From contig JAPPOH010000005.1 of the NCBI GenBank assembly GCA_028818155.1, positions 29,943-93,942 of the forward strand: a DNA stretch of 64,000 nt, read 5' to 3'. Shown here one piece after another: positions 16,693 to 63,597 of the stretch; the first letter of the stretch is position 1; every line of letters starts with the position of its first letter. The DNA is from Candidatus Woesearchaeota archaeon. GTDB taxonomy: Archaea > Nanobdellota > Nanobdellia > Woesearchaeales > UBA525. Under the pieces are notes generated by a model that saw only the letters and a program-made list of their open reading frames with translations, did not search any database and had not been told where the DNA came from. The position numbers were made by a program, and so were the translations under genes.

Positions 16693-19600
16693 CTAGACAA
16701 TCTCAAAGAAGAAGCTTACAGTGTCTTCACTCCCCTTGTATGAGGCTAGGCGTGAGGGCACTTTAATTTCATAGTCATACGTTCCAAACATGCCTGCTTG
16801 TGAGACATTAATGTTCGCTACGAATACGAGATCCTCTTCATCCGTTGTGTCAAATTGATCATTCGCAGATGCATCGTCGGCACTATCCCATAAAATACCA
16901 GTCCAGAATGCAGTGACGTTCGTACTATTCACATACGGCACGTTTTCAACGAAGTTACTTGTGAAGTTCACACCCCTCACACTCAGAGGAGTATTCGTGC
17001 CACCACCCCAAATTTCTTCAAGAGAATCCTCGAACGATGATGTATTGAGGTTTGTATCAGCATCGGTAAAGTCATTCCCAGTTGGACTCCCCCCTTCTGT
17101 CCGTGTAAGAGCGTAGAGATTCACAATGGAGAATGCACTGTCAGTGTCAGCAACAAGCAAATGACCAGCAACATTCGAAACATTGCCGAACTCATAGTAC
17201 GATGTGTTATCCCCCCCGCTGTGGAGCACGATTCCTGATGAGACATTTCCATAGTAGATTTGATACTGCTCAACAGTAAGATTTATCGTCACATTATTGT
17301 TGAGAAGATTCGCGTCATCTTGTGTATTCATCGGATCCACAGTCACGAAAATTTCATTTACGCCAGGCAACAAGATGTACGACACATTCACGACCACAGA
17401 TTGGCTAATGTTGAGCTCAGCAATCGTTATATTCCCATTGATTTGGTCGCCGCCTTGCCCACCTGTGAAGAACTGCACAATGATGCTGTCATTCGTATCA
17501 GTATTCCCTTGGTTCGTGATATTCGCGAAGAGCGTTATGTTAACCCCTTCAACAAGTGACTCACCACTCGTCGTCACATCAGTCTCATTGACCTTCAAAT
17601 CAGGACCGGTAATATTAATAGTGAAATTAAGCGGCGCAAACGCACTATTCCCATATGTATCGTAACAAAGGACATTCCATTCCCGTACGCCAACATTCAC
17701 GAACTCTTCATAGAATGTGTTATTTTCACCATTCGTAGGAGTTGTGTTTGTCACGATAGGATCAAACGTTACTTGCTCGAGATAGAACGTGCAATTATCT
17801 AGGTTGATATCATACGGAGCATACGTAAAGTTGAAGCTCCCTGCGCCACTCTCAAAGAAATCTGGCGGCGCGTAGAGCGTGACGTTTGGAGGAGTTGAAT
17901 CCGTAACAATTTCAAACTGTGCCCACCCCGTTCCATTCGTGAAGTTAGAGCGGTACGCTTCAGAGACAGCAGAGTAATTCCCAAAGACTTCAGATGCAGT
18001 GGGGAATTGCATGAGAACAAACCCACTTGAATCTGTCTCACTCTCATTCCTGTATATGTGCCACTCCTCTTCTTGAAACGCTGTAGTAATATTGGCGTTT
18101 GTCATCTTGTCACCAACGACTTCGAAGTTATCCCACATACAATGATCTCCAGCGTTCCCAGGAGCGCGCCCACCAAGGTTAAACTGAATGACATCATCAA
18201 TATTACACTCAATTCCAGCGTATGTGCACGCGTCATATGGTCCTATCTCAAAGTAATCAACAGGCTCAGGTGTTGCATCATTCGTATAGCACGTTGTTGT
18301 GTTTGCGTTCGTGCAGTTAAGAAGCAACGTGTATGTTGCCGCGTTATCATCAGTTGTGATGAGCGTACAAAACTCACTCAGAGAATCCAGGCTTGCACCC
18401 ACAAAGTCAGATGAAGCACGAATACTATCACACGGACTCGTTCCACAGAGTGAATTGTTGTTGGTCATGTTGAAAATAACCCCCCGCTCAGGAGCCCAGA
18501 CATCCAGGTCTTGTAATCGCAAGGCATAATCTGTCGATGAGTGTGCCTGATCAGCACCATCGTCCGTCGTACAGAACTCATAGTCTCCACCATCAATACA
18601 TGCATTGAAATTACCCCACGGGCTGTTTTCCGTGCACAAATTCGCACCACAGTTTGTTCCAGTTGTATCAAACCATCCATCCCCTCCCGAACTATCTCCA
18701 AAATCTTCCGTCATAATCGTCACAGTCCGCGAAATCGCAGCATAACCAGGATCTGTTGCGCCAGAATTGTTGTAGTAAACGTGATACATTTCATCATTTG
18801 TTGCACCACCACTAATATTCGCAAGGAACCTGAACTCACAATACTCATCGTCATCACCACCAAGCGCTTCAACAGGGATGACAGTGTAGTTGTTCTTCAC
18901 ATTGCTGCTATTCAACAGAATTAACCGAATTTCATTCACACAATCCGAGATATTCCCAGCCAATCCAGTAATGTTAGCAAAAACAACAACATCTGTTCGT
19001 GCGCTTGCAAGTTGATTCGTTATGAGGAGGGGTTGTCGTTTCTTCCATGACGTGTTCCACCACTTGAATGTTGTATTCCCATAGATAATGTCAGTTGTCA
19101 CATTTGTTTGTAAGCCTGTTCCGAAAATATCTGTTGTGTTGGTTGTGATATTAGCAATATCTCCCACTTCGTATTGTAGCTTGTTTGTCGTTACATCAAC
19201 ATTGATAGAATCACTCTTCAACACCGTGAAATTGAGCGTGAAACTTGTGTTGAAATTACTTTGCACATCATAGCATTGCACTCGCCACGTATAATTCCCA
19301 TCCTCGAGATATACATTGAACTCTTCTGTGGCGCCAACAGTTACTGACGTGTCAGTCTCATTCTCAAGCTCATCGATAAAGAGTGTACAATTGTCTATGG
19401 ATATGCTATCAGATACATTGTACTGAAGCACAACATTGTTCGTCCCAACAAACGAGCTGTTTTCAGGAGAGAGTTGTGTTATAATTGGTGGTGTGATATC
19501 CAGTATAGTGATCCAGTGTGTTTCCACACTAGATGTATGATTCTCTGTCTCATTGAAGACAGCAGTCACATTGTAGAATCCAGGTTCTGCAAAGAACGTA

Positions 19601-34000: not shown

Positions 34001-37000
34001 GGTTTCCAACGATGAGGATGTGGAGATCACCGTCATCAAGAATATCATCGACGCCTTGTAATTCGAGTTCAATGTACATATCTGCAGCTATCGTGTTGTT
34101 CGCTTCATGTATTCGAGTGTATGAGTTACTCGTGTGGTTGAATACGTAAATATAGAATGTATCTGCTGTCTGGAATGTTTGCTGTGTAACATACCCTTCG
34201 TAGAAGAAGAGGATTTCTTCTATATCGATCGGCGATTCAGTCACTTCAAATCGGAAGCTCTGATAGACGGACTCTCCAGTATCTGTTGTTGTTGTCGTCG
34301 CAAGTCGAACGTTATTCGACGTTGTGACAGATGAGTAACTCGAGGTTGATATTTCTGTTTCTCGAACGGGGGTACTTGTCGGCAGCAAACTTCCGTTTGC
34401 ACCATCATATAACGCATGTATGTTACTTGGATGCGTGATACCTGTGTATGTGTACGTGCTCACCACATCAGCAGGTTCGATAAATTCAATGAGTGGCTCA
34501 TGTGTCATTCGCTGCCACTCGAATTCAATGTACGCTCCAGGACTTGTCGCTGTGCCATCATTTTCAAAGTCACCACATCCAACATCTGTGAATGCCCGCC
34601 CTGTCCAGAGTGCACACGAGAGTGTGTCATCTTCTCCCTGATCATATACAAAGATTTCATCATTTCCAGGACTGCTCGATGTGATAACATGTCCAACATC
34701 TCCTCCGCCTGGTTGTCCAATAGGATTTCCTTCACCCCAATCACTAAACGACCATGAATTTGAGCTAATCGTGTAGAAGCCACCTTCAGGGAAGTCTTCA
34801 TTCGCATCAACCCACACATATACGATCTGGTCACCTGATTTTTCAATGGCACAGCTTGTTGAATGCAGGGCTGCTGTTCCTTCGTTCCCACCACATTCAC
34901 TTGCAGTATCTTGTACGGGTGTTTCCGAGGATAGTGCTTTCGAGAATGCACTGCCATCCCAGTAGCCACCATCACGATCAGCATCCTGATCACACGTCAT
35001 AACACCGATGTAATCGTGTGCAAACGACCCTGTCGATGGTGATTCTCCACACAAATGCACCTCTCGGGCTTCAGCACCAAGACCATCGTAGATGTTGCCA
35101 AGATGCGTCCACGCATTTGTGCTTGGCTGGAATCGCCATGCATAGAGATCGTCTGAGTTATTCCCGTATGCGAAGAGCATTTCTCCAGAATTTCCTTCCC
35201 ATGCACATGAGAACTGCTTTCTGTCATCTCCATCAGCTTCTAATGTAACGTTGATCGTATGGTTAAACACATTGTTGTCTCCATCCCACACGGTTGCGTA
35301 AATATCACCTGTTCCCGCATCATTTTGTATGCCCATGCCGATGAGGTTAGTGTCCTTTTGTGCACAAAGCTCAAGCCATCTGAAGTCGTTGTTCGGCGCT
35401 CCACTGATACTGTATGTCTGCTCTGTACTGAGATTATCTCCATTCCACAATCTGTAAGCGAAATCCCCATCAAGCCCATTTGCTGTCTCATACACGACGA
35501 GACAATCTTCACTGACGAGATCTTCACATGCGACATCGAAACTACGCTGCACATCCAAGCCCCGATTCGGCTCTACTTGTGTGATATTATGCCACACTCT
35601 GTTCACGATGTCGAATACCGCAAAATCAATAGAGTTATCGACTTCTTGAATCATAGCATAGCACTCGGGCCGCCGTTGAGCACAAACAAATCGATACCAT
35701 GAGATATTGCTTCCAAGTGCGCCAAAGATGTTTTCTTCTTCGCCAAGTACACCGGTCCAATTCCTCTGTAGCGGATTCTCTGGATCAGTGAGGTTTGCGT
35801 ACAGGAGTATTCCAACTTCACCAAACTTCGGTAGTTCAAGATCATTGAACTCTGATGGGGCGTTGACAGTGAATGCACGTTGTTCACTCGTATTCTTATT
35901 CGCACGATTATCAGTGCACGTGACATTCCACGTGTGTGCTCCGTTCGCAACTTCAACAGATCTAGTCGTTGCAGTGCCATTGGGAGAGGGGATGTTTCCG
36001 AGACGAATAGCACCATCAACGATAAGATCACACGCAAGCTCAGGATCTGTATTGTCCGTTGCAGTCCAGTTGAATGTGATCAATGAGACAGCAAAGCTTT
36101 CTGACACGAGCGGTGCGTTGAGGACGATAGTGGGCTCCTCTTCATCAACAATACAGGTGCCACCCCACTCCCCTCCGTCTTGGTAGAACCCTTTCCAGAC
36201 AAGATCCCCAGAGCTGTTTGTGAATGCTACTACAAAGGAACCCTCACAGATGCCAAAGCCAAGCTGCGTGTCGGCGCCAATCGCATCATGTAGGAGGTAT
36301 GTCGCATCAGGCTCACTTGTAATGTTGAATGGTCCTGCCACATAGCTGCCGTTATTATCGAAGACTGAGGCTTTGATGCTGTTATCTGCTCGGTCTTGCC
36401 AGACGACAGCGATATTGCTCGTCCCTTGGAACTCAACTTCTGCGGCAGCAACTCTCGTTTCAGTCCCTAAGTCAGTGTCAACTGCAGCAGAGCCGATTGT
36501 TGTGAACGTATCACCTCCAACATCAAGCACAGTGAGATTGACGTGGTTGACGGCACTGTCGAAGTACACAATACCAACGCGTTCTCCTCCAATGTGTGCA
36601 ATCGCAACCTGTCCTGTTTCACCAATATTCGTGTCAATATCAGTTATGTTGTTGATGATGCTCGCACCTGTGTTTGGAATGATTCTTGCGCTCAAGTCAT
36701 TCTGACTGTCATCGAACCATGCTGTTACGGCGCGCGTGCTGTTCGTTGTTGTACAATCGACAAGGTTCTGGAGTGTTTGTGCAGGCGCAATGTTTCCATC
36801 AATGTTGAACTCACTCACACTCAACGTGCCATCATTCGTGTAGATCTCTCCATCATAGTCGTTATTCAAATCTTCTCCATACGCGACAATGAACTCTGCA
36901 CCGTACTGGCAGACGCCCATGTCTGTGAAGATATTTACATCTGCGTCAACCTGTGTTTGTCCCACCACCGCAGAGCCATTTTCGTGATAGATGTAGAAGT

Positions 37001-40000
37001 CAACATCTTCTTCAGGACCATCATTCACGATGACAACGAAATGTGTTTCATTGATCGGTGCCGCTGCGATGCGACTGGAATCGTCAACAGTTGTATCGAT
37101 ATCAACTTCTGGCACGAGGAGTGTTCCATTTGCGTCCCAAACTTCAAATGATGTGTGATTACTATCAACATCAACCCACGTCACAATAATCGTTGTGTTA
37201 TCGAGTGCCGCGAGTGCTACATCTTGTCCCTGGCTGGCATCGACGTATCCGGTAGGCACATCAACTGTGACGAACCGCGTTTCACTCGTGTTTACGTTGC
37301 CAAATGTATCTTGACACGTGACGTTCCAAATATACAAGCCATCTGACAGAATGAGCGATTTGTTTGCCGCTACACCTGCGCTCGATCCAATTGTGGCTTC
37401 CACATTGCCATTTATGGTCAAGTTACAACTAAGGAACACTGCCTGATCGTCATCAGCTGTCCAATTGAAATCAGTGAGTGATGTGGGTACTGTCGAATCG
37501 TTCGCTGGGGAATTTAGTGTGATGTTTGGTGCGATGTCATCAAACCCACAGAAGCCATCCCATGTACTTCCATTCACGAGGAAGAGTTTTCGCTCACCAA
37601 CGGCAGAGCTATTCGTGAATGATACAACGAATGTCCCATTGCAGAGCCCAGCTTCGTGCTGGGAATTGTATCCTGCAACACCGTGCAATCTGTACGTATC
37701 ATTGATATTTGTGCTAATGTTAAAGGCCGGTGTGATGAGCGTTCCTGTTCTGTTGTACACAACAGCCTCAATGACATCTTCTCCTTGATCATACCATGTC
37801 AGCACGAACATGCTTTCATTGTCTGCTTCAATTTCTGCAACATCTAATCGCACTTGCGAAGTAACAGACGTGTCAATGTTAACAGGGCCAACAGCCGCTG
37901 AGATGGAATCTGCGGATGTATCGACGACAAGCATTTTCACAGTGCTCTCTGGAGAATCATAATAGAACATTGCTATGTCTTCGTCTCGTAACCCTGCGAG
38001 TGCCATCTGTGATGTGCCACCAACATCAAGATCTGCTCCTGATGGCCCTGCAACGATAGATCCTGTTTCATCGTAGAGTGCTGCTGTGAGGTCGTCTGTC
38101 GCGTCATCAAACCAGCTCACGAACCACCTCGTGTCGCTCACCGGCACAACGGAAACGAGATTCTGTAAGTTTTGGTCAGGCGCGACGTTATCGTCAATAT
38201 CGAATTCAGTAGCTTCAACACTGCCGTTGAGATAGTGGATCATGCCGTGAAGATCATCGCCGCTCGTGTCATCGACCCACGCAGAAACGATTCGATTTTG
38301 AATGTATGCTGATGACACGTCAACATTTACGCCCGCATCCGTATCAAGAATGAATGGCGCACCGATCGTACCTTGTTCAAATGCGCCCCAGTACACGAGC
38401 TCACCTGTGTGCGTGTCACAATCATCATTCCCGTCTTGTTCACAGTAGCGGAAGTCCATGCCACCAGCGACAACATTTCGGGCCCACGGATATTGTGGAT
38501 CTTGTCCACCGTCATCATCGTTTTGTGTCACCATGACAATAGGGTCTGCAAAGGTCGGTGTGAATGTTGCTGCTGTCCAGTCAGAGTTGCTGATGTCGGC
38601 ACTTCCTGATTGGAAGCCACCTATTTTGTGATTTCCCGTGTCAATCGCAATCCAACCAACAGTTTCAGTGGAGTCTCCTCCTGTACAGGTATCTCCTGTG
38701 TCTTCATGGACACAGCCAAGAACAGTCGTATGACTTGCGTTTGTATCCGCTCCCTCAATCCATGTGTTCATCGCCATTTCACCAGCAGTTTGCGTGTATG
38801 TTTGTGGTGTCGCGAAGACAAAGGGTGTTCCTGAGAGTGTTTTGCCAAAGGAAACGGCATTATCTGCCCCATTGTGATTTATCCCAGCGGTTGTTCCTGC
38901 AGCGATCCAGTCATATGCTGTGATCGCATCTGGGTCAACGACGACGTAGTGGACCGTTTCAAGATCTGTGTCAGTGTCACACGTTGTTGCGGCGTTGTCT
39001 CGACAGAGACTGACGTTGAATCCTGTGCTCGTTACATCTTTTACGACAGGAACGAAGCCGTTATTGTCATCGGCTGCTGCTGCGTTTTGGCTTGCAGGTG
39101 TTGCAATCACAACAGGCGCATTCGAGTATGTGTTTGCGAACGTGATGTATTGGAAATTAAAGTCTTCAACTTGTGTGCTCCCTGCTTCGCCTATTGGTCG
39201 GTAGGTGTGGTGTCCGCTTTTATTGTAGACGTAGATGTAGTTTGTATCATCATCTGCGTCATAGAGATTGATCAAGAAGTGTGTCGTGTTGATTGTCGCT
39301 GCATCAATGCGTCCCCAGTTTGACGATCCATCTTGCACATCGGTATCAATGTCAATTGCTCCATACAGATCTGTCTCATTTGTGTGTATAATTCTGAAAC
39401 TTGCATCCTGACTTGTCTCTTCTATGTATGCAACAACGTAGAGATCTTCATCTAGTGCTGTGACGTCTGATTCGACGACAGGCTCATCGGAAAACTCTGG
39501 GTCGATTGCCAAGTACCATGGTCGTGCTTCGGTAATTGTTGTTGTGTCGTACGCGACTTTCGATTGTCCAAGTTGGTAGAGTTCTGGGGTGATTTTCGGG
39601 ATTGTTGCTGTGTAGCTCACTGTGGAGCCGTTGCTGAGGTTATTCCACGTAAGGAAAATGTTCGTCGTATCTTGTGTTTGCGTTGCTGTGCTTGTGATGT
39701 TTGTGAAGTTGATGGGCAAGACTTCTGTATAGTTGAACGCACCGCTATGGTTGAATGACGTGACTGTTACAGACACAGCGAGCAGCTCTTTGAATGGATC
39801 TATCGTCACGGGCGCATTCCTGATGATGTCGAACGGATAGTGTTCCTGCACGAGGAAGAAGGAGAGCATGCTCTGGTTCACATTCACATCGTGTGCTTCC
39901 ACGAAGAGATCGTATGTTCCTTCTTGTTCTGGTGTGTATATCGCTTCGTACACTCCATCAGATGTCTCTATGATCGTTGTGATATTCGTCGTTATGTTAT

Positions 40001-41267
40001 TCGGGTCTGTGACAAGCAGTTGTATATCTGCGTTACTCACGAGGAATCCGTTGTTGTCGAGCACAACCATGACGATTTCTGCTGTCTCATTCGGGCGATA
40101 GATGGGCTTTCTTGTGTTGACTGTGGCAACGCCTGTCTCTGCGTAGCCAGGATCGCCAGGGTAGAGGAGAATATCGTACTGTTCTCCTGGCCTGAGGTAC
40201 TTGTGCAATTCCCATGTGCCGAAGCATGTTTGTGTGGTGAAGTTCCATTTTGCACACTTCCAGAGTTGGCTTCCTTGTGCCGTACTCGTCGCTGTTGCAT
40301 TACTGAAGTTCAAATTGTCAAGGTTAATCGCGTATGCTTTGAGTACAGGATCGCCGTTGATCTCAACGCTTTCTTTCGGGAGATCATCAATGCCAATTTC
40401 AATCGTTTCCTGCGGTACACAGTCGTGAATATCTAGCTTTTGTACTGCTCTACTGTCTGGCGTGACGTGGACTTCGTATGAGTTGTTGCTGTTTTTCTCA
40501 AACTTGACAGCTGCGTATCGTCCTTGCCCTTCATTATTCACAACGCCGAAGGTAAAGAGGCCATGCTCATTTTCAAACTCTTGTGCCGGAACGTCAACAA
40601 TGAGTGCAGGTTCTGGTTCTTCTATCTCATCACCGGGCTCTGGTTCGTCAGGTGTTGGTTGTGGAAGGAGTGCTGGTTGGACGGTGAATGCATGTCTCCC
40701 TACGACGGCACCATTCTCGGAGATGATGATTTCGTGCAAGCCTGGATACTTTGGCACGAACGGTGAATCTCGCCATGGGCCGAAGTATTTGAACAAGCCA
40801 CCAGGGCCGTTGATGATGATCTTGATATCTTGTGTTGGGGGTGGTGTGATGGATATGTGGACGTTTTGCTCTGCTCTCGGTTCTTCGCTGATGGTGATTG
40901 TCCTTGTCTTATTCGTCTCGTTCGCTTCTTGGACGGTGAATATGTCTTGGTGCACAACCTGTCCTGAGCTGTCGATGAGTTGGACGGTGTATTCGCCCGG
41001 TGTTTTCGGCACGAATGGAACAACCTCCCCTGGTTCATCTAGGAGCCTGTACTTTGCTTCCGGCGCGAAGATCATGATACGTGAGCTGTCGTTTGTTGTG
41101 TTGATGAGGACGGGTTCTCCAACGTTGTAGAGTGTTTTGTCTGTGATTGCTATTGTGAGTGGAAGGATTACTAAGAGTGCTACAATGAAGGCGTACTTGG
41201 CTGTGGTGGATTGTCCTCTAGCCATGTTTCCACCTCTTGATGATCGTTGGATAGAATGTGTGTCCAT
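25047..41267 (-). CDS. giant secreted/anchored multi-domain protein (5406 aa; about 5392 aa if it starts at the alternative ATG 41225). It has an N-terminal signal anchor, two copies of the ~270-aa Cys-rich cassette domain, at least two CARDB-like domains, many Ig-like and FN3-like repeats, and the conserved C-terminal domain
   Basis: Uninterrupted 16.2-kb ORF. N-terminal hydrophobic segment AKYAFIVALLVILPLTIAITD. The alternative start 41225 overlaps the upstream regulator's stop by 8 nt (CATGGCTAG). The C-terminal ILWDTSDGGSA...GIYDYEIKIPATL matches the 2785-aa protein. Confidence 0.9.
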   Translation of the reverse strand: MDTHSIQRSSRGGNMARGQSTTAKYAFIVALLVILPLTIAITDKTLYNVGEPVLINTTNDSSRIMIFAPEAKYRLLDEPGEVVPFVPKTPGEYTVQLIDSSGQVVHQDIFTVQEANETNKTRTITISEEPRAEQNVHISITPPPTQDIKIIINGPGGLFKYFGPWRDSPFVPKYPGLHEIIISENGAVVGRHAFTVQPALLPQPTPDEPEPGDEIEEPEPALIVDVPAQEFENEHGLFTFGVVNNEGQGRYAAVKFEKNSNNSYEVHVTPDSRAVQKLDIHDCVPQETIEIGIDDLPKESVEINGDPVLKAYAINLDNLNFSNATATSTAQGSQLWKCAKWNFTTQTCFGTWELHKYLRPGEQYDILLYPGDPGYAETGVATVNTRKPIYRPNETAEIVMVVLDNNGFLVSNADIQLLVTDPNNITTNITTIIETSDGVYEAIYTPEQEGTYDLFVEAHDVNVNQSMLSFFLVQEHYPFDIIRNAPVTIDPFKELLAVSVTVTSFNHSGAFNYTEVLPINFTNITSTATQTQDTTNIFLTWNNLSNGSTVSYTATIPKITPELYQLGQSKVAYDTTTITEARPWYLAIDPEFSDEPVVESDVTALDEDLYVVAYIEETSQDASFRIIHTNETDLYGAIDIDTDVQDGSSNWGRIDAATINTTHFLINLYDADDDTNYIYVYNKSGHHTYRPIGEAGSTQVEDFNFQYITFANTYSNAPVVIATPASQNAAAADDNNGFVPVVKDVTSTGFNVSLCRDNAATTCDTDTDLETVHYVVVDPDAITAYDWIAAGTTAGINHNGADNAVSFGKTLSGTPFVFATPQTYTQTAGEMAMNTWIEGADTNASHTTVLGCVHEDTGDTCTGGDSTETVGWIAIDTGNHKIGGFQSGSADISNSDWTAATFTPTFADPIVMVTQNDDDGGQDPQYPWARNVVAGGMDFRYCEQDGNDDCDTHTGELVYWGAFEQGTIGAPFILDTDAGVNVDVSSAYIQNRIVSAWVDDTSGDDLHGMIHYLNGSVEATEFDIDDNVAPDQNLQNLVSVVPVSDTRWFVSWFDDATDDLTAALYDETGSIVAGPSGADLDVGGTSQMALAGLRDEDIAMFYYDSPESTVKMLVVDTSADSISAAVGPVNIDTSVTSQVRLDVAEIEADNESMFVLTWYDQGEDVIEAVVYNRTGTLITPAFNISTNINDTYRLHGVAGYNSQHEAGLCNGTFVVSFTNSSAVGERKLFLVNGSTWDGFCGFDDIAPNITLNSPANDSTVPTSLTDFNWTADDDQAVFLSCNLTINGNVEATIGSSAGVAANKSLILSDGLYIWNVTCQDTFGNVNTSETRFVTVDVPTGYVDASQGQDVALAALDNTTIIVTWVDVDSNHTSFEVWDANGTLLVPEVDIDTTVDDSSRIAAAPINETHFVVIVNDGPEEDVDFYIYHENGSAVVGQTQVDADVNIFTDMGVCQYGAEFIVAYGEDLNNDYDGEIYTNDGTLSVSEFNIDGNIAPAQTLQNLVDCTTTNSTRAVTAWFDDSQNDLSARIIPNTGASIINNITDIDTNIGETGQVAIAHIGGERVGIVYFDSAVNHVNLTVLDVGGDTFTTIGSAAVDTDLGTETRVAAAEVEFQGTSNIAVVWQDRADNSIKASVFDNNGSYVAGPFNITSEPDATYLLHDAIGADTQLGFGICEGSFVVAFTNSSGDLVWKGFYQDGGEWGGTCIVDEEEPTIVLNAPLVSESFAVSLITFNWTATDNTDPELACDLIVDGAIRLGNIPSPNGTATTRSVEVANGAHTWNVTCTDNRANKNTSEQRAFTVNAPSEFNDLELPKFGEVGILLYANLTDPENPLQRNWTGVLGEEENIFGALGSNISWYRFVCAQRRPECYAMIQEVDNSIDFAVFDIVNRVWHNITQVEPNRGLDVQRSFDVACEDLVSEDCLVVYETANGLDGDFAYRLWNGDNLSTEQTYSISGAPNNDFRWLELCAQKDTNLIGMGIQNDAGTGDIYATVWDGDNNVFNHTINVTLEADGDDRKQFSCAWEGNSGEMLFAYGNNSDDLYAWRFQPSTNAWTHLGNIYDGLGAEAREVHLCGESPSTGSFAHDYIGVMTCDQDADRDGGYWDGSAFSKALSSETPVQDTASECGGNEGTAALHSTSCAIEKSGDQIVYVWVDANEDFPEGGFYTISSNSWSFSDWGEGNPIGQPGGGDVGHVITSSSPGNDEIFVYDQGEDDTLSCALWTGRAFTDVGCGDFENDGTATSPGAYIEFEWQRMTHEPLIEFIEPADVVSTYTYTGITHPSNIHALYDGANGSLLPTSTPVRETEISTSSYSSVTTSNNVRLATTTTTDTGESVYQSFRFEVTESPIDIEEILFFYEGYVTQQTFQTADTFYIYVFNHTSNSYTRIHEANNTIAADMYIELELQGVDDILDDGDLHILIVGNQTTAAGIDARADIFTDYVEVRTRMRPNIRLTQLSNISAEDDNGVDVCDYYYHNDTIGIGPEGTLKANATSFYNSSDTTVAANALYNLTAECNDTFGAENNETIDVRIDNVAPSIALDTPGNNTSPPTSNVTFGWNGTDDFTGTLICNLTIDDILNVSNVAADVGGQANVTVFSVPDGTHNWSVTCIDQAGNSATSETFYFTQNTGPPTVTLNAPAANAFLNESTVLFNYTPVDPIGIGNCTLILDGVANETNTSVTANQPNFFNITGISNGVHLWSVNCTDLGGFEGSSSTRNFTVDTIGPLALLNTTDGITFTEGVASLNFTVFDNLDTELLCNITINGVVEDSNIPSPARAYDKSCDETIGEAGAVQVEDFQFAYITYNRTYTSTPVVIATPASQNAGAAEDDNGFVAVVKDVTTTGFNVSLCSDNGATTCDTTTELEDVHYVVIDVDAIAGYDWIAAGTSTGIQGNGVEQTMSFGKTLSGVPHVWGTMQTYTQNAGEMAMGFWFDDADTTTSQTGLTGCVHEGIANDCTGSDATETIGWVAITPDEQIVGYQNSSAAIASSTWTAATFTPAYTTPIVMVAQNDDAGGQDTQYRWARSVVAGGMDFRYCEQDAADTCDTHAAELMVWGAFEEGNVSGPPPDGCAEVMINRNLTLPDGLHFWNVTCVDEAGNYNISETRNFTIVGPPFIELQVPVNGTTQSGNTVNFTYYVQDGDGIGNCSLIIDDVVNRSNTTGLTVPGNNSFIVNNMATGVHTWTVNCTDNLGENGTAYNGPYTINIDGIPPFINLSLPLNDTTALIPAINFNFTPIDDFSANMTCNLTIDGVVDSGNLNFNAPNNTLTNRVQTLGNGIHEWNVTCSDASGNVNTSETRFVTVNITLPVNISVVTDKSNYQQGEIVNITVTVFNSSWAQLNTNVTTDIIYTNASTTGAPWWNTSWGRRIAIDLNETTNSPRYGEVVLVNISNLDGYNTDCDTELRIVEFKNNVTVELPRTIVDGNGTHYCEVFFAANITANAFDQDRYFAYFNNTGASGSPANATVASRGNVQRGTVDGTGADFIVELPTPVTVANSFLLFTANSADTSPDGNRFTGNITNSTHLHFSRYLGTAAANISWQVIEHEDITMQQGNNTLTSGTLTTTADIAEVDVTKSFIVVSASGDSTSTSLNNIAFVRGHFVNSTQIEFERLTGGAESNVAWQVVTWEGTRVQNGTATMDAGDTIETVVINAFNDTRSFIIMSRTIANDTGLDENHVRAEFVGSDRVSFERSVGANGVAMIDWFMVEMPRRTVTQVDDSAFSTDTSVAINEVVLNRTFHISTWESTGGGTTYTNAMLIATLTNGTNLSYDKQTASNTNTVTTFVVELSNYSSIEAILTGHQIHLQQDINESGVGGNFTNLWNSSGRDFGNYSAVGRAVADPDSLGVDHAIFGIASDIFPPEVTILAPPNNTIDDVTDITFVYTANDLGTTIANCSLLLNGEINQTNTTITEMVNQSFLIENMGEGDYSWTVQCTDTVGNIGNATNGPFRLIIDETDPVVTAIDPDGTVHSSNDILFNFTVADNVDLLLFCNISVDEGTYWNTTTAVNGSVTTGAVSGIGDGFHYWNVTCYDDNNNTGISNTLNFTNDAAPLVVLTTPVDGYGTPVGNISFNYTVVESSLSNCSLIIDGIVNQTKNSSEIPNQDGDDPNEFNLTGIPEGVHNWTVTCVDTNGFSGSGSPVREFHVDSGTPTVTLNAPANNATFFVTTVDFNFTAIDNIDPVLDCNVTVNGDVNITTTADNGTATVVTGSGFTAGNYSWNVTCIDNTGFVNTSETLNFSVSPDVNVILNSPDDNASDSDGDVTFIYTPQSVADFDSGGFCELIIDGSNNQTDGTITNNAENNFTLESLNEGSYTWQVNCTDNDVVRGASEIRTIYIDFTNPTVQPHHPNGTTFAVSTILFNWTAIDNIDPTLSCNVSLDSVLVAGDIDSPNGSVANTTISSINDSLHLWEVSCTDDSGRIGASDTFNFTVNEPPKVVLDAPSNGTRAAVTSFMLNYTPTDNSENIGNCTLIVNGLNNQTNTTVSHNVTNDFNLTALAHGEYNWTVSCIDLSSNEGINDTNYTFYVDLFGPTIILNLPLDLETLNSNNVTFNWTPIDHPGSTVNCSLFVTNASNNITVTGITGTANTDFNTTVAGLADGSHDWNVTCSDDLGNTNNSLTQSFVINQPDLVLNETSRINFNETNPDLGETINITANVSNIGGTGANDVLVQFWDGLPSAGGTLIGNDTQTVAFNSSTIFSVSWNITFGYHEIFVSADPDGLIGELVENNNNASRNISLLFANITQPLENNITADTTPQIDFNISDFTGGNLSYVIYVDDTANGQVGVVQDLQNNSLNITALADGVHTIIVQANDTLQRFKNSTPLTIRIDTTAPNVTFLTQNDSWYAVTNVTIEFNITDVFSANLNYTFYLDGTLNHTNTTTNNTRNTVNLSNLAEGQHTVTVEAEDELGNIDNSTVLTFYVDLTPPVPNTTTANNTWFNTLTPGIDFNITDNLDPILNYTIYVDGVANTNGTSTNGVEATATLNAITEGNHTIIVQALDEAGHVVNDTEIVIYVDVTPPNVTLLTPLNDTNLSSTSVTLNFTVSDNLGTPLICNLTLDDVVVSVNVSVTNGSFHNFTVNDLNSGYHFWNATCIDNATNAGISETWQFFVELSDLEINAGNITFSNSTPIENQTVEVNATVFNIGNLNATNITVQFFLGDPDLGGVQINGNATIASLGIGENTTVSMNHSAVIGLNRIYVLVDPPLATNGSIAEENESNNEAFRDFNVGHFEIFAGTSGNELKISDASIISAFKWNQTNVTGSNVFVADTDSSLIFTSLQAIGRNTTNGTDTGNDDFEEIDQQLNATSLNDSVNLTWTSGGAPVASITLQSFKRTITDIPVVNSTNTSSFVTGILWDTSDGGSAYNTSQDIVFVTIMNESQAGQYGIYDYEIKIPATLRDYILGGGSVSFYTELR
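32090..32930. repeat. copy B of ~820-bp intragenic repeat cassette (within 5406-aa gene)
   Basis: Same alignment as copy A. The antisense ORF 32698..33318 peptide MSHVVAPLSLHKLTLNPVVVTSFTTATKPL... parallels MSVSHVVAALSRQRLTLNPVLVTSFTTGTKPL... at 38968. Confidence 0.8.
38370..39210. repeat. copy C of ~820-bp intragenic repeat cassette (within 5406-aa gene, ~5.4 kb from copy B)
   Basis: Same alignment as copies A and B. Confidence 0.8.
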
Positions 41268-45924: not shown

Positions 45925-46326
45925 TCACCATTCCATCATCACTTTTCTCTTCGCGAGCGGCGTGATGGCAACTTGCCGCTTCTTCAATCCTTTCGTCAGT
46001 TCTTTTGGGAGCCTCAGTGTAAAATTATCACCATCAAACGAGAGTTTTCTCGTGAATGAGAAGGATGTTTTCTCAAGTGCACGCTTCACTTCTAATGCAG
46101 TGTCAAGCTTCTGCGCCTCATCGAAACCGAGTAATTCTCTCTTACACTTCGGACAACGGAACACCTTGATCGTAAGTGTTATTCCTCCAGACAGAGGATA
46201 ATTTTTTGCAACAAGCTTCATTTTTCTATTATCTTTGCCACAGTATGTTGTTCCCTTCGATGTAAATGCGTCTTTCGAGAATTCGACATCCACACCTTCC
46301 AATTTTTCTAGATCGATGTTTTTCAT
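45925..46326 (-). CDS. putative antitoxin: zinc-ribbon (CPKC) + AbrB/SpoVT-like swapped-hairpin domain (133 aa from internal Met MKNIDLEK)
   Basis: FRCPKCKRELL and TRKLSFDGDNFTLRLPKELTKGLKKRQVAI are AbrB/MazE-like. Its ATG overlaps the stop of the upstream toxin gene by 4 nt. Confidence 0.55.
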   Translation of the reverse strand: MKNIDLEKLEGVDVEFSKDAFTSKGTTYCGKDNRKMKLVAKNYPLSGGITLTIKVFRCPKCKRELLGFDEAQKLDTALEVKRALEKTSFSFTRKLSFDGDNFTLRLPKELTKGLKKRQVAITPLAKRKVMMEW

Positions 46327-46583
46327 TTTCGTTTGTAATGCTTGATTTGTTTCTTGTCTGATGGGTACGCAGTAGTTATCTGAGCCTTTCTTTTTCTGAG
46401 GGTGAAGAAGATGGTAACGAATCGCGCTGCACAACCAATCGCAACAAGTTGCCGTCCACCAACTTTTTTGAAGATTGGTGCATCATAGTGCAGCACAGAT
46501 ACGATCTCTGCTGCTGAGATGCCATGCTTCTTCTCAACTTTCTCAAGGATATGGGGCTCGATCCGCACGTGATCAATCTTCAT
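46323..46583 (-). CDS. putative toxin, DUF4258/BrnT-like small protein (86 aa)
   Basis: The MKIDHVRIEPHILEKVEKKHGISAAEIVSVL...ITTAY pattern is typical of the DUF4258 toxin family. It is translationally coupled to the downstream antitoxin candidate. Confidence 0.55.
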   Translation of the reverse strand: MKIDHVRIEPHILEKVEKKHGISAAEIVSVLHYDAPIFKKVGGRQLVAIGCAARFVTIFFTLRKRKAQITTAYPSDKKQIKHYKRK

Positions 46584-46708
46584 ACCCTACTATTTTCGTA
46601 AGGTTTTCTATATATAAATCTTACGATTCCTCTCGAAGTCATAGAAGATGGAAATCTCACTGCAATTAAATAGTTTGTGGCCGCACATGTCCAGTGGAAG
46701 AATAAAAA

Positions 46709-54343: not shown

Positions 54344-54988
54344 TTGAATCCTCGATGCATGCATGAACGATCACTAGGGAGAACAGTTCACATTTCAGAC
54401 CCGAACCTTCCTAAACCAGTGGGAGAGTTTTTTCGAAAGTGTAGCTCTGACTATGCGATCTGGCAAGGGCAAGCGTATTCAATACGGGACAAATCGAGAA
54501 GAGGAGGTCTCACTCTCAGGATGGGACCAATAGGAAGTGTACCAGGTCTCACATGCGAAGATATCTACATCGAGCGCGTTGAGCGAGGAAGAATTCCTGT
54601 AAGTATGTATGAAATAACAACAGAAATACTACCCTTCGCGTGTTTCCCAGAAGGCACTCGTGATGAAGTCCTTAAATTTTCAAGATCTTCAGTAGCACGA
54701 CACGATATAATGCTAACAAGAGATGGAGATGATCTTATACGAACACAAGAGCAAGTAACACGCGTTACTGGAGCGTACCTGGATCGTGTTGAAGAGCATT
54801 TCTTAGGGAGAAAAATAGGTTACTCAGCACTTGAACCTCCATTTGAGGAACACCCAGACGGAGGATTCAGAATACCAAGCACTACTGCACGCATGCAGCT
54901 TCTCCAAAACGAGAGAGGTTATGATCTTCAAGTCACAAGTAATGGAGAAACCTGTGTCGCAGGTACGTTAGTCACAATACCCCAGTAA
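54344..54988 (+). CDS. hypothetical protein (214 aa)
   Basis: ORF-track ORF with no recognisable motif. Confidence 0.55.
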   Translation: MNPRCMHERSLGRTVHISDPNLPKPVGEFFRKCSSDYAIWQGQAYSIRDKSRRGGLTLRMGPIGSVPGLTCEDIYIERVERGRIPVSMYEITTEILPFACFPEGTRDEVLKFSRSSVARHDIMLTRDGDDLIRTQEQVTRVTGAYLDRVEEHFLGRKIGYSALEPPFEEHPDGGFRIPSTTARMQLLQNERGYDLQVTSNGETCVAGTLVTIPQ

Positions 54989-59447: not shown

Positions 59448-59476
59448 CTTCTATTTTTTTTCTTTTTCTTTTTACT
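59448..59476. terminator. bidirectional T/A-rich tract between convergent genes
   Basis: TAACTTCTATTTTTTTTCTTTTTCTTTTTACT. Confidence 0.35.
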
Positions 59477-60404
59477 ATACTTCAAAAACACACTTCCTAG
59501 GCTCTCGTGCTTTGTACAGACGTTCTATCCGGTTACTCGCAACGGTTGAACCAAGTTCACGAGCATGCATAAAATGTTCTGCAGCCTTCTCTTCCCTCCC
59601 TTGTCGTTTCGCCAGATCTCCTAATTGGATGTGTGGCGCGGGCTCACTAGGCTCAAGTTCTGCACTCGCAGAAAAAGCACTATGAGCGTTCATGGAAGTA
59701 GATTGCTGGTGTGTCACCTGTAACAACTGGTAACGTCGTCCAACATGATAAAAATCACTCGCACTCTCTGCTGTTCTTCTTAATTCTCTCACTCGCATTC
59801 GCTCTCGCACCGTAAGATCTCTGTAATATTGTGCAGCTCCATGTTTGCCATCGTGTACGATAGTGAATGGTGAAAAGAGTTCTCTGTCAGGCGTGACGTC
59901 GTTTTCTGCTATTGTGCCGTGTTCTTTGCCTGGTACATACACTGGACTCTCCCATATGATTCCATCATATCCTGTTCCTCGCCGAAAGAGAAACTCACGA
60001 TTGCATCGAAAATCCCTCCCTTCAAGGTAGACTTCTCGTGCACGAATGATGTCATATGTTCCATCTTCTGTATCAACAAAAGAACGAAGAGCATCCAAAT
60101 CTCGCAAATCTGGTCGCATGTCTTGGTGTAGACGCATACTCCAATCAGCATTTGCTTTCTCAAGTAAGGTGTTTATTGCGTGACTAAAGTTGTTTTGCCA
60201 TTCGTACGGAAATACAGTGACTGGTATCGACCAGTCTGCAACAGTAGCTTCCACAATCTCTTGTGTGCTGTCTGTTGTCTGTGTGCTGATTCCTATGACT
60301 GCTTCGTCAAGAATAGGCCTGAGAAGTTTTAGTGTTCTATCTATTTTGAGTGCTGATGCTTCGGCATTGTTGAGGAGTGCACAAACTGCAAGAGTTTTTC
60401 CCAC
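59475..60404 (-). CDS. putative glycosyltransferase-like protein (309 aa; GTG start; leaderless-type promoter)
   Basis: N-terminal region LAVCALLNNAEASALKIDRTLKLLRPILDEAVIGISTQTTDSTQEIV resembles a GT2 Rossmann start. TATA box TTTAAATA at 60428-60435 lies 24 nt upstream of the GTG. Confidence 0.5.
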   Translation of the reverse strand: MGKTLAVCALLNNAEASALKIDRTLKLLRPILDEAVIGISTQTTDSTQEIVEATVADWSIPVTVFPYEWQNNFSHAINTLLEKANADWSMRLHQDMRPDLRDLDALRSFVDTEDGTYDIIRAREVYLEGRDFRCNREFLFRRGTGYDGIIWESPVYVPGKEHGTIAENDVTPDRELFSPFTIVHDGKHGAAQYYRDLTVRERMRVRELRRTAESASDFYHVGRRYQLLQVTHQQSTSMNAHSAFSASAELEPSEPAPHIQLGDLAKRQGREEKAAEHFMHARELGSTVASNRIERLYKAREPRKCVFEV

Positions 60405-60664
60405 GAAGGTGTAAACAGCAAGGAGTATTTAAATATAACTATTATAACTACTGAAGAGTGACTATAGAAAGCACTGGACACATAGTTTCTCGTCGATAAA
60501 ACAGTGAAATCACCACTGGACATGTACGCGTGGCGTATTTAAATGAAATCTGTCTCTTTGTTCTTGTTGGAAACACCAACACCCCCCTTTCGGCTGCTGT
60601 GGACTCCCACCGCTGTACCACTCTCGCGGTGGCCCACAACTCCTTTCCCGAAAGATGAAACAAA

Positions 60665-61480
60665 ATGAAAAACAAACACTGGCCAAAAACGGATATTGAG
60701 TATATGAAGAAGCATTACTCAGATATGGAAGATGAATATCTTGCTTGGTTTTTCGGAAGAACACCTAATGCAGTACGTATTATGGCTCACAGACTTGGTT
60801 TGAGTAAGAGATCTGTTCAATACAGACTGGGTTTGAAATTAACGCAAGAAGAAGAACAAGTTATTGTTGGAGGTCTTCTAGGTGACCTACATTCAAGAGT
60901 TACAAAGACAGCAAAAAATCCAAGACTAGAAGGTGGTCATGGATTCAAGCAGAGAGAATACATGCTTTGGAAAGTATCGCTTTTGAAGAGATTAAAATGG
61001 TGGATTTACAAGACAAAAATTAATACGTATTCCTACCAGAGTAAAAATTTTCCAGCACTCTGGAAGTATCAAAATTTATTCTACCCAAATGGTGAGAAAA
61101 TTATCACAAGAGAGACTCTTGATCTTCTTGATGATTTTGGTGTTCTTATTTGGTATCTTGATGATGGATCATACGTTAAAAAAGATAAATCATGTCGTTT
61201 CCACACGAATGGCTTCTCAGCTAACGAGCAGAAAGAGATTCTTTGGTGGTTTAACGAAAAATACAGTATAAATCCAAGAATTCATACACAAAGAGACTCA
61301 AAAAACTACCCTGGAAAAAAATGGGAATACATCTACATATCCCGAAAAGATACGAAAAAATTATTCAAATCCCTTGAAAAATTCGAAATTCCTGACTGTA
61401 TGCGATACAAATTCGGTCGGAATTTATCACACTCCACTAATTTTCACGAGCAAGAAGCTATGGCTCCGAAAATTGGGTGA
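60665..61480 (+). CDS. free-standing double-motif LAGLIDADG homing-endonuclease-like protein (I-SceI-like) with N-terminal HTH extension
   Basis: Motif 1 VIVGGLLGDLHSRV and motif 2 LIWYLDDGSYVKK (compare I-SceI GLILGDAY / WFMDDGG). N-terminal HTH LAWFFGRTPNAVRIMAHRLGLS. Not embedded in any host ORF. Confidence 0.8.
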   Translation: MKNKHWPKTDIEYMKKHYSDMEDEYLAWFFGRTPNAVRIMAHRLGLSKRSVQYRLGLKLTQEEEQVIVGGLLGDLHSRVTKTAKNPRLEGGHGFKQREYMLWKVSLLKRLKWWIYKTKINTYSYQSKNFPALWKYQNLFYPNGEKIITRETLDLLDDFGVLIWYLDDGSYVKKDKSCRFHTNGFSANEQKEILWWFNEKYSINPRIHTQRDSKNYPGKKWEYIYISRKDTKKLFKSLEKFEIPDCMRYKFGRNLSHSTNFHEQEAMAPKIG

Positions 61481-61511
61481 AACAAGATCCGAAAGGAAAG
61501 GAGGTATATAA

Positions 61512-61784
61512 ATGGAACAAACATATCAGTTCAAACCTGAACAAAAGGCAATGCCAGTGAAGAGCTTCAAAGCAGGAGCCCTACAAATAGCCATCTGGGA
61601 GAACCAGAGCGAGATTAACGGGCAACCACAAAGCTACAAAACCGTTTCTTTTGACCGCCGCTATAAGGATAAAGATGGCAATTGGAAATCTACGAGTCAG
61701 TTACGATTGAACGACCTGCCAAAGGCAGCACTGATTCTCAACGAAGCGTACAAGTATTTGGTACTCACAGAACCAAATGAATAA
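61512..61784 (+). CDS. small hypothetical protein (90 aa) with strong SD (AGGAGGT), stop overlapping the radA start
   Basis: ORF-track ORF with AGGAGGT 10 nt upstream and a TAA inside the radA ATGAATAA. Confidence 0.6.
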   Translation: MEQTYQFKPEQKAMPVKSFKAGALQIAIWENQSEINGQPQSYKTVSFDRRYKDKDGNWKSTSQLRLNDLPKAALILNEAYKYLVLTEPNE

Positions 61785-62793
61785 AAACCACGAGGTACTC
61801 ACGATGGAACAAGAGGTAATTATGGAAGAAGAAATCACAAAGGCACCAGAACAAGACACGGTGAAGGACATGACGGTCATGGACCTTCCAGGCGTCGGTG
61901 CTGCAACAGCAGAAAAGCTTGAGAATGCAGGATATGATGACCTGATGAGCATTGCAGTCGCATCCCCAGGAGAGATTGTGAATGCATCCGGTGTCTCAGA
62001 GTCTGTGGGCAGGAAGCTCATTCAAGCTGCAAGAGCTTCATTAGAAATGGGCTTCACCAGCGGCGAAGACCTCATGAAAAAGCGAGAGACAGTCGAGAAA
62101 ATCAGCACGAACGTGCAAGATTTCGACAGAATCCTCGGCGGCGGCTTCGAAACGGGCTGCATTACCGAATGTTTTGGCCAGTATGGGAGTTGCAAGACGC
62201 AAATTGCACATCAACTTGCCGTGAATGTCGTCGCACAAGACCCAGAAGGCGTGACAGTGTTCATTGACACGGAAAACACCTTCAGGCCTGAGCGAATCAA
62301 ACAATTTGCAGAGGGCAAAGAACTTGATGGCGATGAAGTGCTGAAAAACATTCGTGTTGCGAAGGCATACAACTCCGATCATCAAATGTTGTTAGCTGAA
62401 AAGGTTGAGGAGCTCATCAAAGATGGCGTGAAGGTTAAGGCAGTTGTTGTTGATAGCCTGACAGCACACTTTCGAGCAGAGTTTGTCGGACGAGGCACGT
62501 TAGCTGAGCGACAGCAGAAGATCAACAAGCACATGCGAGTATTATCAAAGCTTGCAGACCGCTACAACATTGTTGTGTACGTGACAAATCAAGTCATGGC
62601 GAAGCCAGACGCGTTCTTTGGCGACCCAACAGAAGCGATCGGCGGTCACATCGTTGGACATAACAGCACGTTCAGAGTCTACCTCAGGAGAGGCAAGAAA
62701 GGCACGAGAGTTGCGAAACTTGTTGACGCACCAAACATGCCTGACGACGAAGCGGTCTTTATGGTAACTGAGACGGGCATTATCGATGTCTAA
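61777..62793 (+). CDS. radA: RadA recombinase (archaeal RecA/Rad51 homolog)
   Basis: N-terminal HhH DLPGVGAATAEKLENAGY, Walker A GQYGSCKTQ, Walker B VVVDSL, L1/L2 regions. Confidence 0.95.
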   Translation: MNKNHEVLTMEQEVIMEEEITKAPEQDTVKDMTVMDLPGVGAATAEKLENAGYDDLMSIAVASPGEIVNASGVSESVGRKLIQAARASLEMGFTSGEDLMKKRETVEKISTNVQDFDRILGGGFETGCITECFGQYGSCKTQIAHQLAVNVVAQDPEGVTVFIDTENTFRPERIKQFAEGKELDGDEVLKNIRVAKAYNSDHQMLLAEKVEELIKDGVKVKAVVVDSLTAHFRAEFVGRGTLAERQQKINKHMRVLSKLADRYNIVVYVTNQVMAKPDAFFGDPTEAIGGHIVGHNSTFRVYLRRGKKGTRVAKLVDAPNMPDDEAVFMVTETGIIDV

Positions 62794-62796
62794 CTT

Positions 62797-62812
62797 TTTT
62801 TTTCTTTTCATA
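62797..62812 (+). terminator. oligo-T tract after radA
   Basis: TTTTTTTTTCTTTTC directly after the stop. Confidence 0.4.
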
Positions 62813-62847
62813 TAACTATATAAACAACGATAGCCACTCGAGTAATA

Positions 62848-63015
62848 ATGGAAAAAAGTGAACTAGATATGGAAGCGCTCAAAGCGAAGATGGAGCTATT
62901 AGATACTGAACCGATGTCTCCCGAAGATGAGAAATTCTTAGAACAAGCGCTAGAGGCAGATAAAAAGGGAGAAACGATATCACTCGAGGATCTTAAGAAA
63001 GAACTCGGAGTGTAA
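62848..63015 (+). CDS. putative antitoxin (55 aa, acidic), partner of downstream RelE-like gene
   Basis: Manual translation gives MEKSELDMEALKAKMELLDTEPMSPEDEKFLEQALEADKKGETISLEDLKKELGV. Its stop abuts the toxin ATG (TAAATG). Confidence 0.5.
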   Translation: MEKSELDMEALKAKMELLDTEPMSPEDEKFLEQALEADKKGETISLEDLKKELGV

Positions 63016-63270
63016 ATGTTCAAGCTGAAGATAGATGTTCAACCTAGAAAATTTCTTCGAAAATGTGACATGAGGATACGGGCAAGATTGACGAGATCTC
63101 TCAAAAATCTCACTATTGATCCTTTTCCCCCAGATACAAAACGTATCGTAGGAAGAAAACAAAAAGCATTTAGAAAAAGAGTCGGAAACTGCAGAATTTT
63201 GTATACTGTTAACTTCACTGAGAAGAAAATCGTAGCCTTTAAAATCGAAAAACGAGAAAGAGCGTACTAG
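63016..63270 (+). CDS. RelE/ParE-family toxin (84 aa)
   Basis: C-terminal KRVGNCRILYTVNFTEKKIVAFKIEKRERAY matches the RelE pattern RVGDYRIIY...IxHRKDVY. Confidence 0.75.
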   Translation: MFKLKIDVQPRKFLRKCDMRIRARLTRSLKNLTIDPFPPDTKRIVGRKQKAFRKRVGNCRILYTVNFTEKKIVAFKIEKRERAY

Positions 63271-63345
63271 AAATCATAAAATGGACAATATTATCCAAAT
63301 ATGGATAACGTTGAGGGAGATTGACAGAACAGTAACTTCTTTAAA

Positions 63346-63597
63346 GTGGTCAGCGTTTCTCATGGTATGATTGAACGTGCACTCGAGACAGGCTATGAAG
63401 CCATTGAATCTGCTTACCGTCTTGCATTTGGCCCTAGAGGTAATCTCACTGCAACCGTACGAACCCCTCGAGAAGATTTTGGAAGTCTCCCATGGACACT
63501 TCGTACGATGAAAATAGATGCTGTAGTAGCATATCGCACTCTTCGATACAAGTCACTCAACGCGGCAAGAACTATCGATACTCGTCTCGGATTCTAA
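63346..63597 (+). CDS. hypothetical protein (83 aa)
   Basis: ORF-track ORF only. Confidence 0.3.
   Translation: MVSVSHGMIERALETGYEAIESAYRLAFGPRGNLTATVRTPREDFGSLPWTLRTMKIDAVVAYRTLRYKSLNAARTIDTRLGF

Follow-up and report, generated by a model that had tools for sequence, protein, structure and literature searches.

We analysed a stretch of 64,000 nucleotides from a metagenome-assembled genome (MAG) of a Candidatus Woesearchaeota archaeon (GCA_028818155.1, contig JAPPOH010000005.1, positions 29,943 to 93,942 of the forward strand), referred to as the window throughout. It carries an operon of a small gene, here called sm, and the recombinase gene radA. Directly upstream of sm lies an open reading frame (ORF) for a LAGLIDADG protein, which we name HEG for homing endonuclease gene. 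By profile, fold and catalytic residues, its product is a monomeric LAGLIDADG endonuclease of the I-SceI type, and the gene, an insertion that consists of the ORF only, lies in the structured 5' leader which is conserved in front of sm-radA. The leader has been kept on one side of the ORF and a conserved sequence box on the other. The features of the locus are given here in their order along the window, with stems taken from the minimum free energy (MFE) fold of the leader.

60472-60480 and 60514-60522, forward strand: two copies of the operator-like motif CACTGGACA, exact matches, upstream of the TATA box
60535-60545, forward strand: TATA-like box GTATTTAAATG, containing TTTAAATG at 60538-60545, from sequence and alignment to relatives
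60556-60664, forward strand: structured 5' leader of the host operon, from the MFE fold and conservation in relatives without HEG
60557-62/60659-64, forward strand: leader stem P0
60565-70/60576-81, forward strand: leader stem P1
60587-93/60648-54, forward strand: leader stem P2
60607-13/60626-32, forward strand: leader stem P3, the hairpin CCACCGC-N12-GCGGTGG
60656-60663, forward strand: upstream one of the two copies of the 8-bp direct repeat TGAAACAA on either side of the HEG ORF
60665-61480, forward strand: HEG ORF, 816 nt, 271 amino acids, with its own start and stop
60680-60835, forward strand: N-terminal helix-turn-helix (HTH)-like domain of HEG, about residues 6-57, from conservation and an AlphaFold model
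60845-61414, forward strand: I-SceI-type LAGLIDADG core, residues ~61-250, from Pfam and fold matches
60884-60886 and 61160-61165, forward strand: codons of the catalytic aspartates D74 and D166/D167, from an alignment of 22 sequences
61478-61485, forward strand: downstream copy of the repeat TGAAACAA, identical with the first eight bases of the box
61478-61504, forward strand: conserved box TGAAACAAGATCCGAAAGG with the Shine-Dalgarno sequence GGAGG (61500-61504), unique in the window
61512-61784, forward strand: sm, 90 amino acids, the first native gene of the operon and directly upstream of radA in relatives
61777-62793, forward strand: radA recombinase gene (Pfam Rad51, E = 6.8e-81; HHH_5), overlapping the end of sm by 8 nt

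The assignment of HEG to a family is based on several lines of evidence. Its single Pfam match at E<=0.1 is PF03161 (LAGLIDADG_2), the family of I-SceI, with E = 1.4e-27 and 97.1 bits at a curated cutoff of 25; the alignment spans residues 65-233 and profile positions 2-168 of 168. Membership in LAGLIDADG_3 (PF14528) is thereby ruled out. When a profile of 22 HEG homologues was compared with the PDB, I-WcaI (6.5e-14) and I-SceI (3e-11) were matched, and the same two enzymes are the best PDB matches of Foldseek to the AlphaFold model (E = 1e-14 and 1e-13, respectively; template modelling (TM) scores 0.73-0.74). The model itself has a predicted local distance difference test (pLDDT) value of 92 and a predicted TM score of 0.84. 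It places two LAGLIDADG helices in one chain, with a core predicted to be a pseudo-dimeric alpha-beta-beta-alpha-beta-beta-alpha fold. The aspartates at the helix ends, D74 in GGLLGD and D166/D167 in WYLDDG, are invariant in all 22 sequences, and the two motifs align with GNILGD and WFMDDG of I-WcaI. Catalytic and most core residues are invariant among homologues that share just 40-66% identity. Judged from these sequence features, HEG probably encodes a genuine, active free-standing homing endonuclease of the I-SceI type.

N-terminal to this core, a segment of about 57 residues is modelled as four short helices with pLDDT >95. Of the 22 aligned homologues, 21 have this extension conserved, and the distant P0025 differs there. 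It matches PHROG 323, annotated as 'transcriptional regulator', with E = 3e-6, while matches to GcrA and to sigma-70 region 4 are sub-threshold. These matches, though weak, are consistent with an HTH domain, which may supply extra DNA contacts.

A first-pass annotation of the window had already described a free-standing I-SceI-like LAGLIDADG gene directly upstream of the radA unit, with an HTH-like N-terminal extension and outside of any intron or intein. This description is borne out by the PF03161 match and the fold, by the order of genes (the ORF 61512-61784, then radA), by the conserved four-helix N-terminus, and by an ORF with its own start and stop in a region that matches no Rfam intron model at E<=10. 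All peptides quoted there, VGGLLGDLHS (residues 68-77), IWYLDDGSYVKK (residues 162-173) and LAWFFGRTPNAVRIMAHRLGLSK (residues 26-48), occur in the translation of 60665-61480. Two details have to be revised: the gene start had been set at 60426, which lies in non-coding DNA 5' of the ORF start at 60665, and the family label LAGLIDADG_3, for which an HMM (hidden Markov model) search had been proposed, is replaced by LAGLIDADG_2.

For comparison with related genomes, we took, among the species representatives of GTDB, the 80 loci with the RadA closest to that of the window (63-80% identity), and searched them by HMM for endonuclease, sm, RadA and RPA genes. HEG was found in none of these 80 radA loci. 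They have a common layout upstream of sm, which comprises one to three copies of CACTGGACA, a spacing of about 10 nt, a TATA box, a hairpin-bearing leader of ~75-130 nt, and the box. The motif CACTGGACA, with its 1-3 copies ~10 nt 5' of TATA, is present in most leader regions of loci without HEG. Most carrier loci have it as well, upstream of HEG; in L007 and L099 it is diverged or not clearly recognisable. In the window, the TATA box aligns with GCGTATTTAAGC/TATATAAA of the relatives without HEG, and it is the putative promoter of the whole HEG-sm-radA transcription unit. The TATA-like sequence (60538-60545) and the GC-rich hairpin (60607-60632) had been pointed out before as part of the 5' region of the endonuclease gene. 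Both are present exactly there, but they belong to the host operon and not to HEG, because relatives without HEG have TATA, leader and hairpin as well.

The leader of the window folds with a minimum free energy of -32.1 kcal/mol (z = -3.74), and 0 of 200 shuffled sequences were as stable. Leader structure was assessed by single-sequence folding and by a permutation test of arm complementarity. Among 59 leaders, the 14 nt just 5' of the box show better pairing with the upstream leader of the same sequence than with the leaders of other sequences: the mean helix is 7.46 within sequences and 6.57 across sequences, and 0 of 2000 permutations reach 7.46. In the window, these 14 nt include the 3' arm of P2; the helix sequences vary between lineages. 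Alignment with MAFFT followed by RNAalifold recovered nothing in the leaders beyond a mini-hairpin in the box, since the leaders differ in length. This mini-hairpin covaries, with GC-to-CG exchanges. The native leader ends with the box and its GGAGG, which also make up the ribosome-binding region of sm. In relatives, GGAGG and the start of sm come after the consensus TGAAAYAAAAnnCGAAAGnAA; upstream of sm, a match to the box was found in 79 of the 79 loci without HEG examined, of which roughly 70 were judged clean. Rfam searches at gathering threshold (whole window) and at E<=10 (60380-61560) matched no family, which leaves neither an intron nor a known leader motif at this place. Since no Rfam family matches it, the conserved combination of operator, structured leader and box upstream of sm-radA in Woesearchaeales is a candidate for a new cis-regulatory RNA or operator.

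HEG is inserted precisely into this arrangement. The promoter and leader of the window (60472-60664) lie 5' of HEG, and the box lies 3' of it. The ORF is flanked by the two copies of TGAAACAA; an exact 8-mer common to both junction windows occurs in 0.4% of random window pairs. When the ORF and one repeat copy are removed from the window sequence, a leader results which aligns end to end with those of the closest relatives without HEG. The stop codon TGA of HEG is formed by the first three bases of the box, and this junction is also found in L001, L004, L177 and L179. Carriers fall into two groups according to the insertion point. In clade A, where HEG is inserted 5' of the box, the leader is preserved in the window and in L004 and has been lost in L001, L177, L179 and L010. 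In clade B (L007, L008, L098, L099), HEG is inserted 3' of the box, and the copies overlap or abut the sm start.

HEG and its close relatives form a small subfamily. About 25 close homologues, with 42-57% identity including the N-terminus, were found among 5.8 billion clustered proteins, all of them sequences of DPANN MAGs or metagenomes. Searching 1.8 billion representatives with a profile gave 11,327 LAGLIDADG_2 proteins at E<=1e-3, about four of which belong to the tight HEG subfamily. Wherever the flank of a close homologue is readable, the gene lies directly 5' of sm-radA (the window, L001/L097, L004, L007, L008, L010, L098, L099, L177 and L179), while more distant LAGLIDADG_2 genes occur in other genomic contexts. 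On a neighbour-joining tree of RadA, the carrier loci are scattered among non-carriers. The best resolved case is the pair of L177, with HEG, and L081, without it. Both loci are syntenic on either side, with nucleotide identities of 83% for RPA, 92.6% for sm, and 88% for radA and the downstream region. Their promoters align up to the TATA box; then follow a 121-nt leader and the box in L081, as opposed to 22 nt, an 816-nt ORF and the box in L177. The segment that differs is a 75-nt leader in L081 and 22 nt plus the ORF in L177. This is a clean presence/absence pair. The first-pass annotation had proposed to look for such a polymorphism among related radA loci, and a conserved core housekeeping family at this position in all relatives would have spoken against its reading. 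The relatives show the polymorphism and no such family: 80 loci lack HEG, and L177/L081 differ by its presence. Furthermore, tblastn of 22 family members on 83 loci without HEG revealed no remnants of it, the matches being at chance level and away from the site.

The region 5' of HEG is variable (L177/L178 2050-2825; L179 260-949), with mobile-element genes in some loci. Upstream of HEG, we observed fragments of an IS91-type transposase in L178 but not in L177, a Fic protein, and a Bro-N domain protein in L179. Viral contigs contain many distant LAGLIDADG_2 genes, none of the radA-leader subfamily, and no sm homologue.

Several signals point to a history of HEG that differs from that of its neighbours. 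With a GC content of 0.355, it is the lowest of 23 long ORFs in the window (mean 0.464, standard deviation 0.028), and in 6 of 6 loci examined its GC content is below that of the neighbouring genes. GC content at third codon positions (GC3) alone was dropped as a signal of foreignness. It is not decisive because the ORFs 54359-54985 and 59475-60404 (upstream, glycosyltransferase-like) have similarly low values, while total GC is a clear outlier. Between L001 and L177, codons 1-170 of HEG show a synonymous divergence (dS) of 0.45 and a ratio of nonsynonymous (dN) to synonymous divergence of 0.08; for the flanking genes, dS is 1.41 in sm and 1.35 in radA, and RPA is saturated. Since dS of HEG is about three-fold below that of the flanks, HEG appears to have been shared by these two loci after the divergence of their host genes. 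A mosaic patch that is closer to a third allele spans codons 171-235 (dN 0.48, dS 1.26). Over ~180 nt (L001 6519-6695), nucleotide identity between L001 and L177 drops from ~85-94% to 55-66%, and L177 is nearer to L179. This patch, seen in the aligned sequences, indicates recombination between endonuclease alleles.

The leaders and boxes add to this. L001 and L010 are without the structured leader, and non-carrier lineages nested between them retain it. Deletion of HEG alone cannot restore a leader-bearing allele without HEG; hence, allele replacement by recombination is required. The variant GGGAATACC of the box mini-hairpin occurs together with HEG in L001, L177 and L179, and also in L007, and the nearest relatives without HEG (L081, L069, L050, L084, L090) have boxes of the CCGAAAGG/GCGAAAGC types. 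The variant could be a co-converted tract or a target variant resistant to cleavage. The contrast of 96% identity in RadA and 69% in RPA between L001 and L081 was also considered as evidence for the transfer of a cassette, but was judged weak because there are only 6 comparable pairs and RadA is very conserved.

The reading we favour, with moderate confidence, is that HEG is a mobile free-standing homing endonuclease gene which spreads by intronless homing into the sm-radA leader. It is probably mobile and not a housekeeping gene because most relatives lack it. According to this model, HEG would be transcribed as first cistron from the operator/TATA promoter of the host operon, together with sm-radA, and its product would make a double-strand break in alleles without HEG at or near the locus. 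Its target could be the very conserved leader box at the junction, or could lie in the neighbouring coding sequence of sm or radA. The latter idea follows from an analogy with free-standing endonucleases of phages, which cleave at a distance of hundreds of bp from their gene (PMC2988022). RadA-dependent repair from a carrier donor would then copy the ORF and a short flanking tract into the broken allele. Spread would take place mainly among related lineages, which would be the reason why the HEG tree roughly follows the host tree. A more specific form of this model is rather speculative, and we consider it doubtful: HEG may be specialised on the regulatory leader of the very recombinase operon needed for its own propagation. 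It would target, or be anchored via its HTH to, the ultra-conserved box or operator DNA, and would ride the regulated promoter and leader, thus being made only when RadA is made; two sublineages would have inserted ~30 nt apart, on either side of the box. In a stronger version of this tentative proposal, HEG would serve these DPANN archaea as a conditional trigger of RadA-dependent recombination that the host tolerates.

A number of observations weigh against mobility. In L007, L008 and L099, HEG overlaps or closely abuts sm, which has the look of integration into the operon. No viral or plasmid vector was identified for the HEG subfamily, as the viral contigs hold neither a subfamily member nor sm. 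The box does not differ systematically between alleles with and without HEG. Decayed copies, some of which a cycle of invasion, decay and loss would predict, are missing among the ~25 homologues. Purifying selection is strong along the whole protein, the copies are old (40-66% amino acid identity), and in nine carrier loci the divergence of HEG goes in parallel with that of the adjacent sm (r = 0.92) and of RadA (r = 0.64). The latter fits either a long vertical residence with repeated loss or a transfer confined to relatives. Finally, the dS contrast comes from one pair, and dS of host genes is heterogeneous, too (0.39-1.59 for L177-L081).

The main rival reading is a domesticated accessory gene of the radA operon, i.e., an old, vertically inherited LAGLIDADG+HTH protein that was lost repeatedly in most Woesearchaeota. 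Possible functions are regulation of the operon, with the HTH on CACTGGACA or the box, or a nuclease acting in repair or recombination with sm and RadA. Without exception, HEG is placed as first cistron in this operon, its N-terminal domain shares in the strong purifying selection, and neither pseudogenes among the ~25 homologues nor remnants in the 83 loci without HEG were seen. The overlap of the HEG stop with the sm start in L007 and L008 suggests translational coupling, HEG and sm diverge in correlation, and WhiA (among the fold matches as 3hyi and 8dy9) sets a precedent for the domestication of a LAGLIDADG protein with an HTH. We nevertheless regard domestication as somewhat unlikely. HEG is absent from all of the 80 closest species-level loci and therefore dispensable, and non-carrier lineages nested between the leader-less carriers L001 and L010 bear the leader, which a simple deletion of HEG could not have restored. 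The low dS relative to the flanks, the mosaic patch and the outlying GC content speak against it as well, as does the retention of the catalytic aspartates, which distinguishes HEG from WhiA and from maturases. Of the hallmarks of a domesticated LAGLIDADG protein, loss of the catalytic acids and uniform conservation in a host clade, HEG shows neither. With its invariant catalytic residues and patchy distribution, HEG is less likely a domesticated DNA-binding protein than a mobile homing endonuclease gene. That it is an inactive relic, a former homing endonuclease gene which no longer cuts and is tolerated in the leader, we hold to be very unlikely. The C-terminal tail (residues 256-271) is disordered, with pLDDT <50, and varies between homologues. 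Yet the ORF has full length, its catalytic and most core residues have stayed invariant at such low overall identity, dN/dS is only 0.08 in the pair L001/L177, and the model is confident (pLDDT 92). Still more improbable is an endonuclease encoded within a self-splicing element, be it an intron in the leader or an intein in a host protein. Most characterised LAGLIDADG_2 enzymes, such as I-SceI and I-WcaI, are indeed encoded in group I introns, and the RNA around the ORF is structured. But neither group I nor group II intron models match at E<=10, the structured RNA is unchanged in relatives without the ORF, and the ORF is neither in frame with nor embedded in any host protein.

The neighbourhood of HEG holds further features. 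The sm gene adjoins radA on the 5' side in about 75 of the 80 species-level loci. Its product is modelled with four strands and a C-terminal helix (pLDDT 84), and has no match in Pfam, NCBIfam, PHROG or PDB. One sm homologue (L016) lies on a contig of small unknown ORFs without radA, possibly a mobile element. An RPA-like gene is located 2 kb upstream in the window. Directly 3' of radA, a second low-GC islet (62750-63350, GC 0.35-0.38) carries ORFs of 55 and 84 amino acids, the latter weakly similar to ParE toxins (E = 0.002, below cutoff); the islet may be a toxin-antitoxin insertion. A scan of the window found no tRNA, and there is thus no tRNA-linked integration. A second module of operator and TATA, CCACTGGACATGTGCGG...CTATTTAA, is situated at 46650-46700 on the reverse strand of the window. 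Downstream of it follow an ORF of 86 amino acids (46323-46583, reverse strand) with a sub-threshold match to BrnT toxins, and an ORF of 169 amino acids (45925-46434, reverse strand). This repetition of the module points to a regulator or a type of promoter common to both places. Three consecutive giant ORFs on the minus strand (5874-16481, 16696-25050 and 25050-41267) fill more than half of the window and encode about 3,500, 2,800 and 5,400 amino acids, respectively.

Much is known of free-standing homing endonuclease genes from phages and organelles; to our knowledge, they are hardly documented in archaeal chromosomes. Our literature searches returned no such gene from DPANN archaea, and no description of a LAGLIDADG gene from these archaea or of one located in a radA leader. 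HEG is a natural fusion of a LAGLIDADG enzyme with an extra HTH, which is relevant to the engineering of meganucleases and to the origin of WhiA-type regulators. As it occupies the 5' untranslated region (5' UTR) and leaves leader fold and ribosome-binding box intact, it spares an essential recombinase gene. The locus also points to homologous recombination as a route of gene flow between uncultivated Woesearchaeota. As by-products, the analysis yields a candidate cis-regulatory RNA and, with sm, an uncharacterised small protein linked to radA.

Among characterised enzymes, I-SceI and I-WcaI share with HEG the sequence family, the single-chain fold with two motifs, and the acidic residue that ends each helix. 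They are only 22-24% identical to it, lack an N-terminal HTH-like domain, and are encoded by group I introns in yeast mitochondrial rRNA genes, whereas HEG is free-standing in an archaeal chromosome and resides inside a 5' UTR. LAGLIDADG_2 genes of phages and viruses, e.g., of Bacillus phage Sophrita and crAss-like phages, which are annotated as 'homing endonuclease with LAGLIDADG motif', are members of the same Pfam family, and some of them align from about HEG residue 4-20, such that the N-terminal extension is apparently common to both. They differ from HEG in their hosts and loci, show 23-32% identity, and none falls into the radA-leader subfamily. For distant relatives with N-terminal extensions in phages and viral contigs, the identity range is 23-37%. 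In WhiA, a bacterial transcription factor present throughout Gram-positive bacteria as a conserved protein, the catalytic residues are lost and the HTH is C-terminal. WhiA/DUF199 proteins combine a LAGLIDADG scaffold with an HTH and appear among the fold matches of HEG (3hyi, 3hyj, 8dy9), but HEG has invariant catalytic Asp residues, an N-terminal HTH and a patchy distribution.

Recombinase loci are recurrent homes of homing endonucleases. Inteins in RecA and RadA as well as the intron of I-Bth0305I in phage recA are homing elements inside recombinase genes (PMC3239194, PMC11377839). They interrupt the coding sequence and need protein or RNA splicing, while HEG sits in the 5' leader. The seg and mob genes of phage T4 resemble HEG in being endonuclease ORFs between conserved genes that rely on host promoters, as free-standing homing endonuclease genes do (PMC2988022), and that are present or absent among relatives. 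They encode GIY-YIG or HNH enzymes in phage genomes and their homing has been demonstrated; HEG is a LAGLIDADG enzyme of a DPANN host, placed within a structured regulatory leader, and its mobility is what we infer here. The closest parallel is segA, a free-standing endonuclease gene that adjoins the recombinase gene uvsX, which is cut by SegA (PMC2988022). Here, uvsX beside SegA is the phage counterpart of radA beside HEG.

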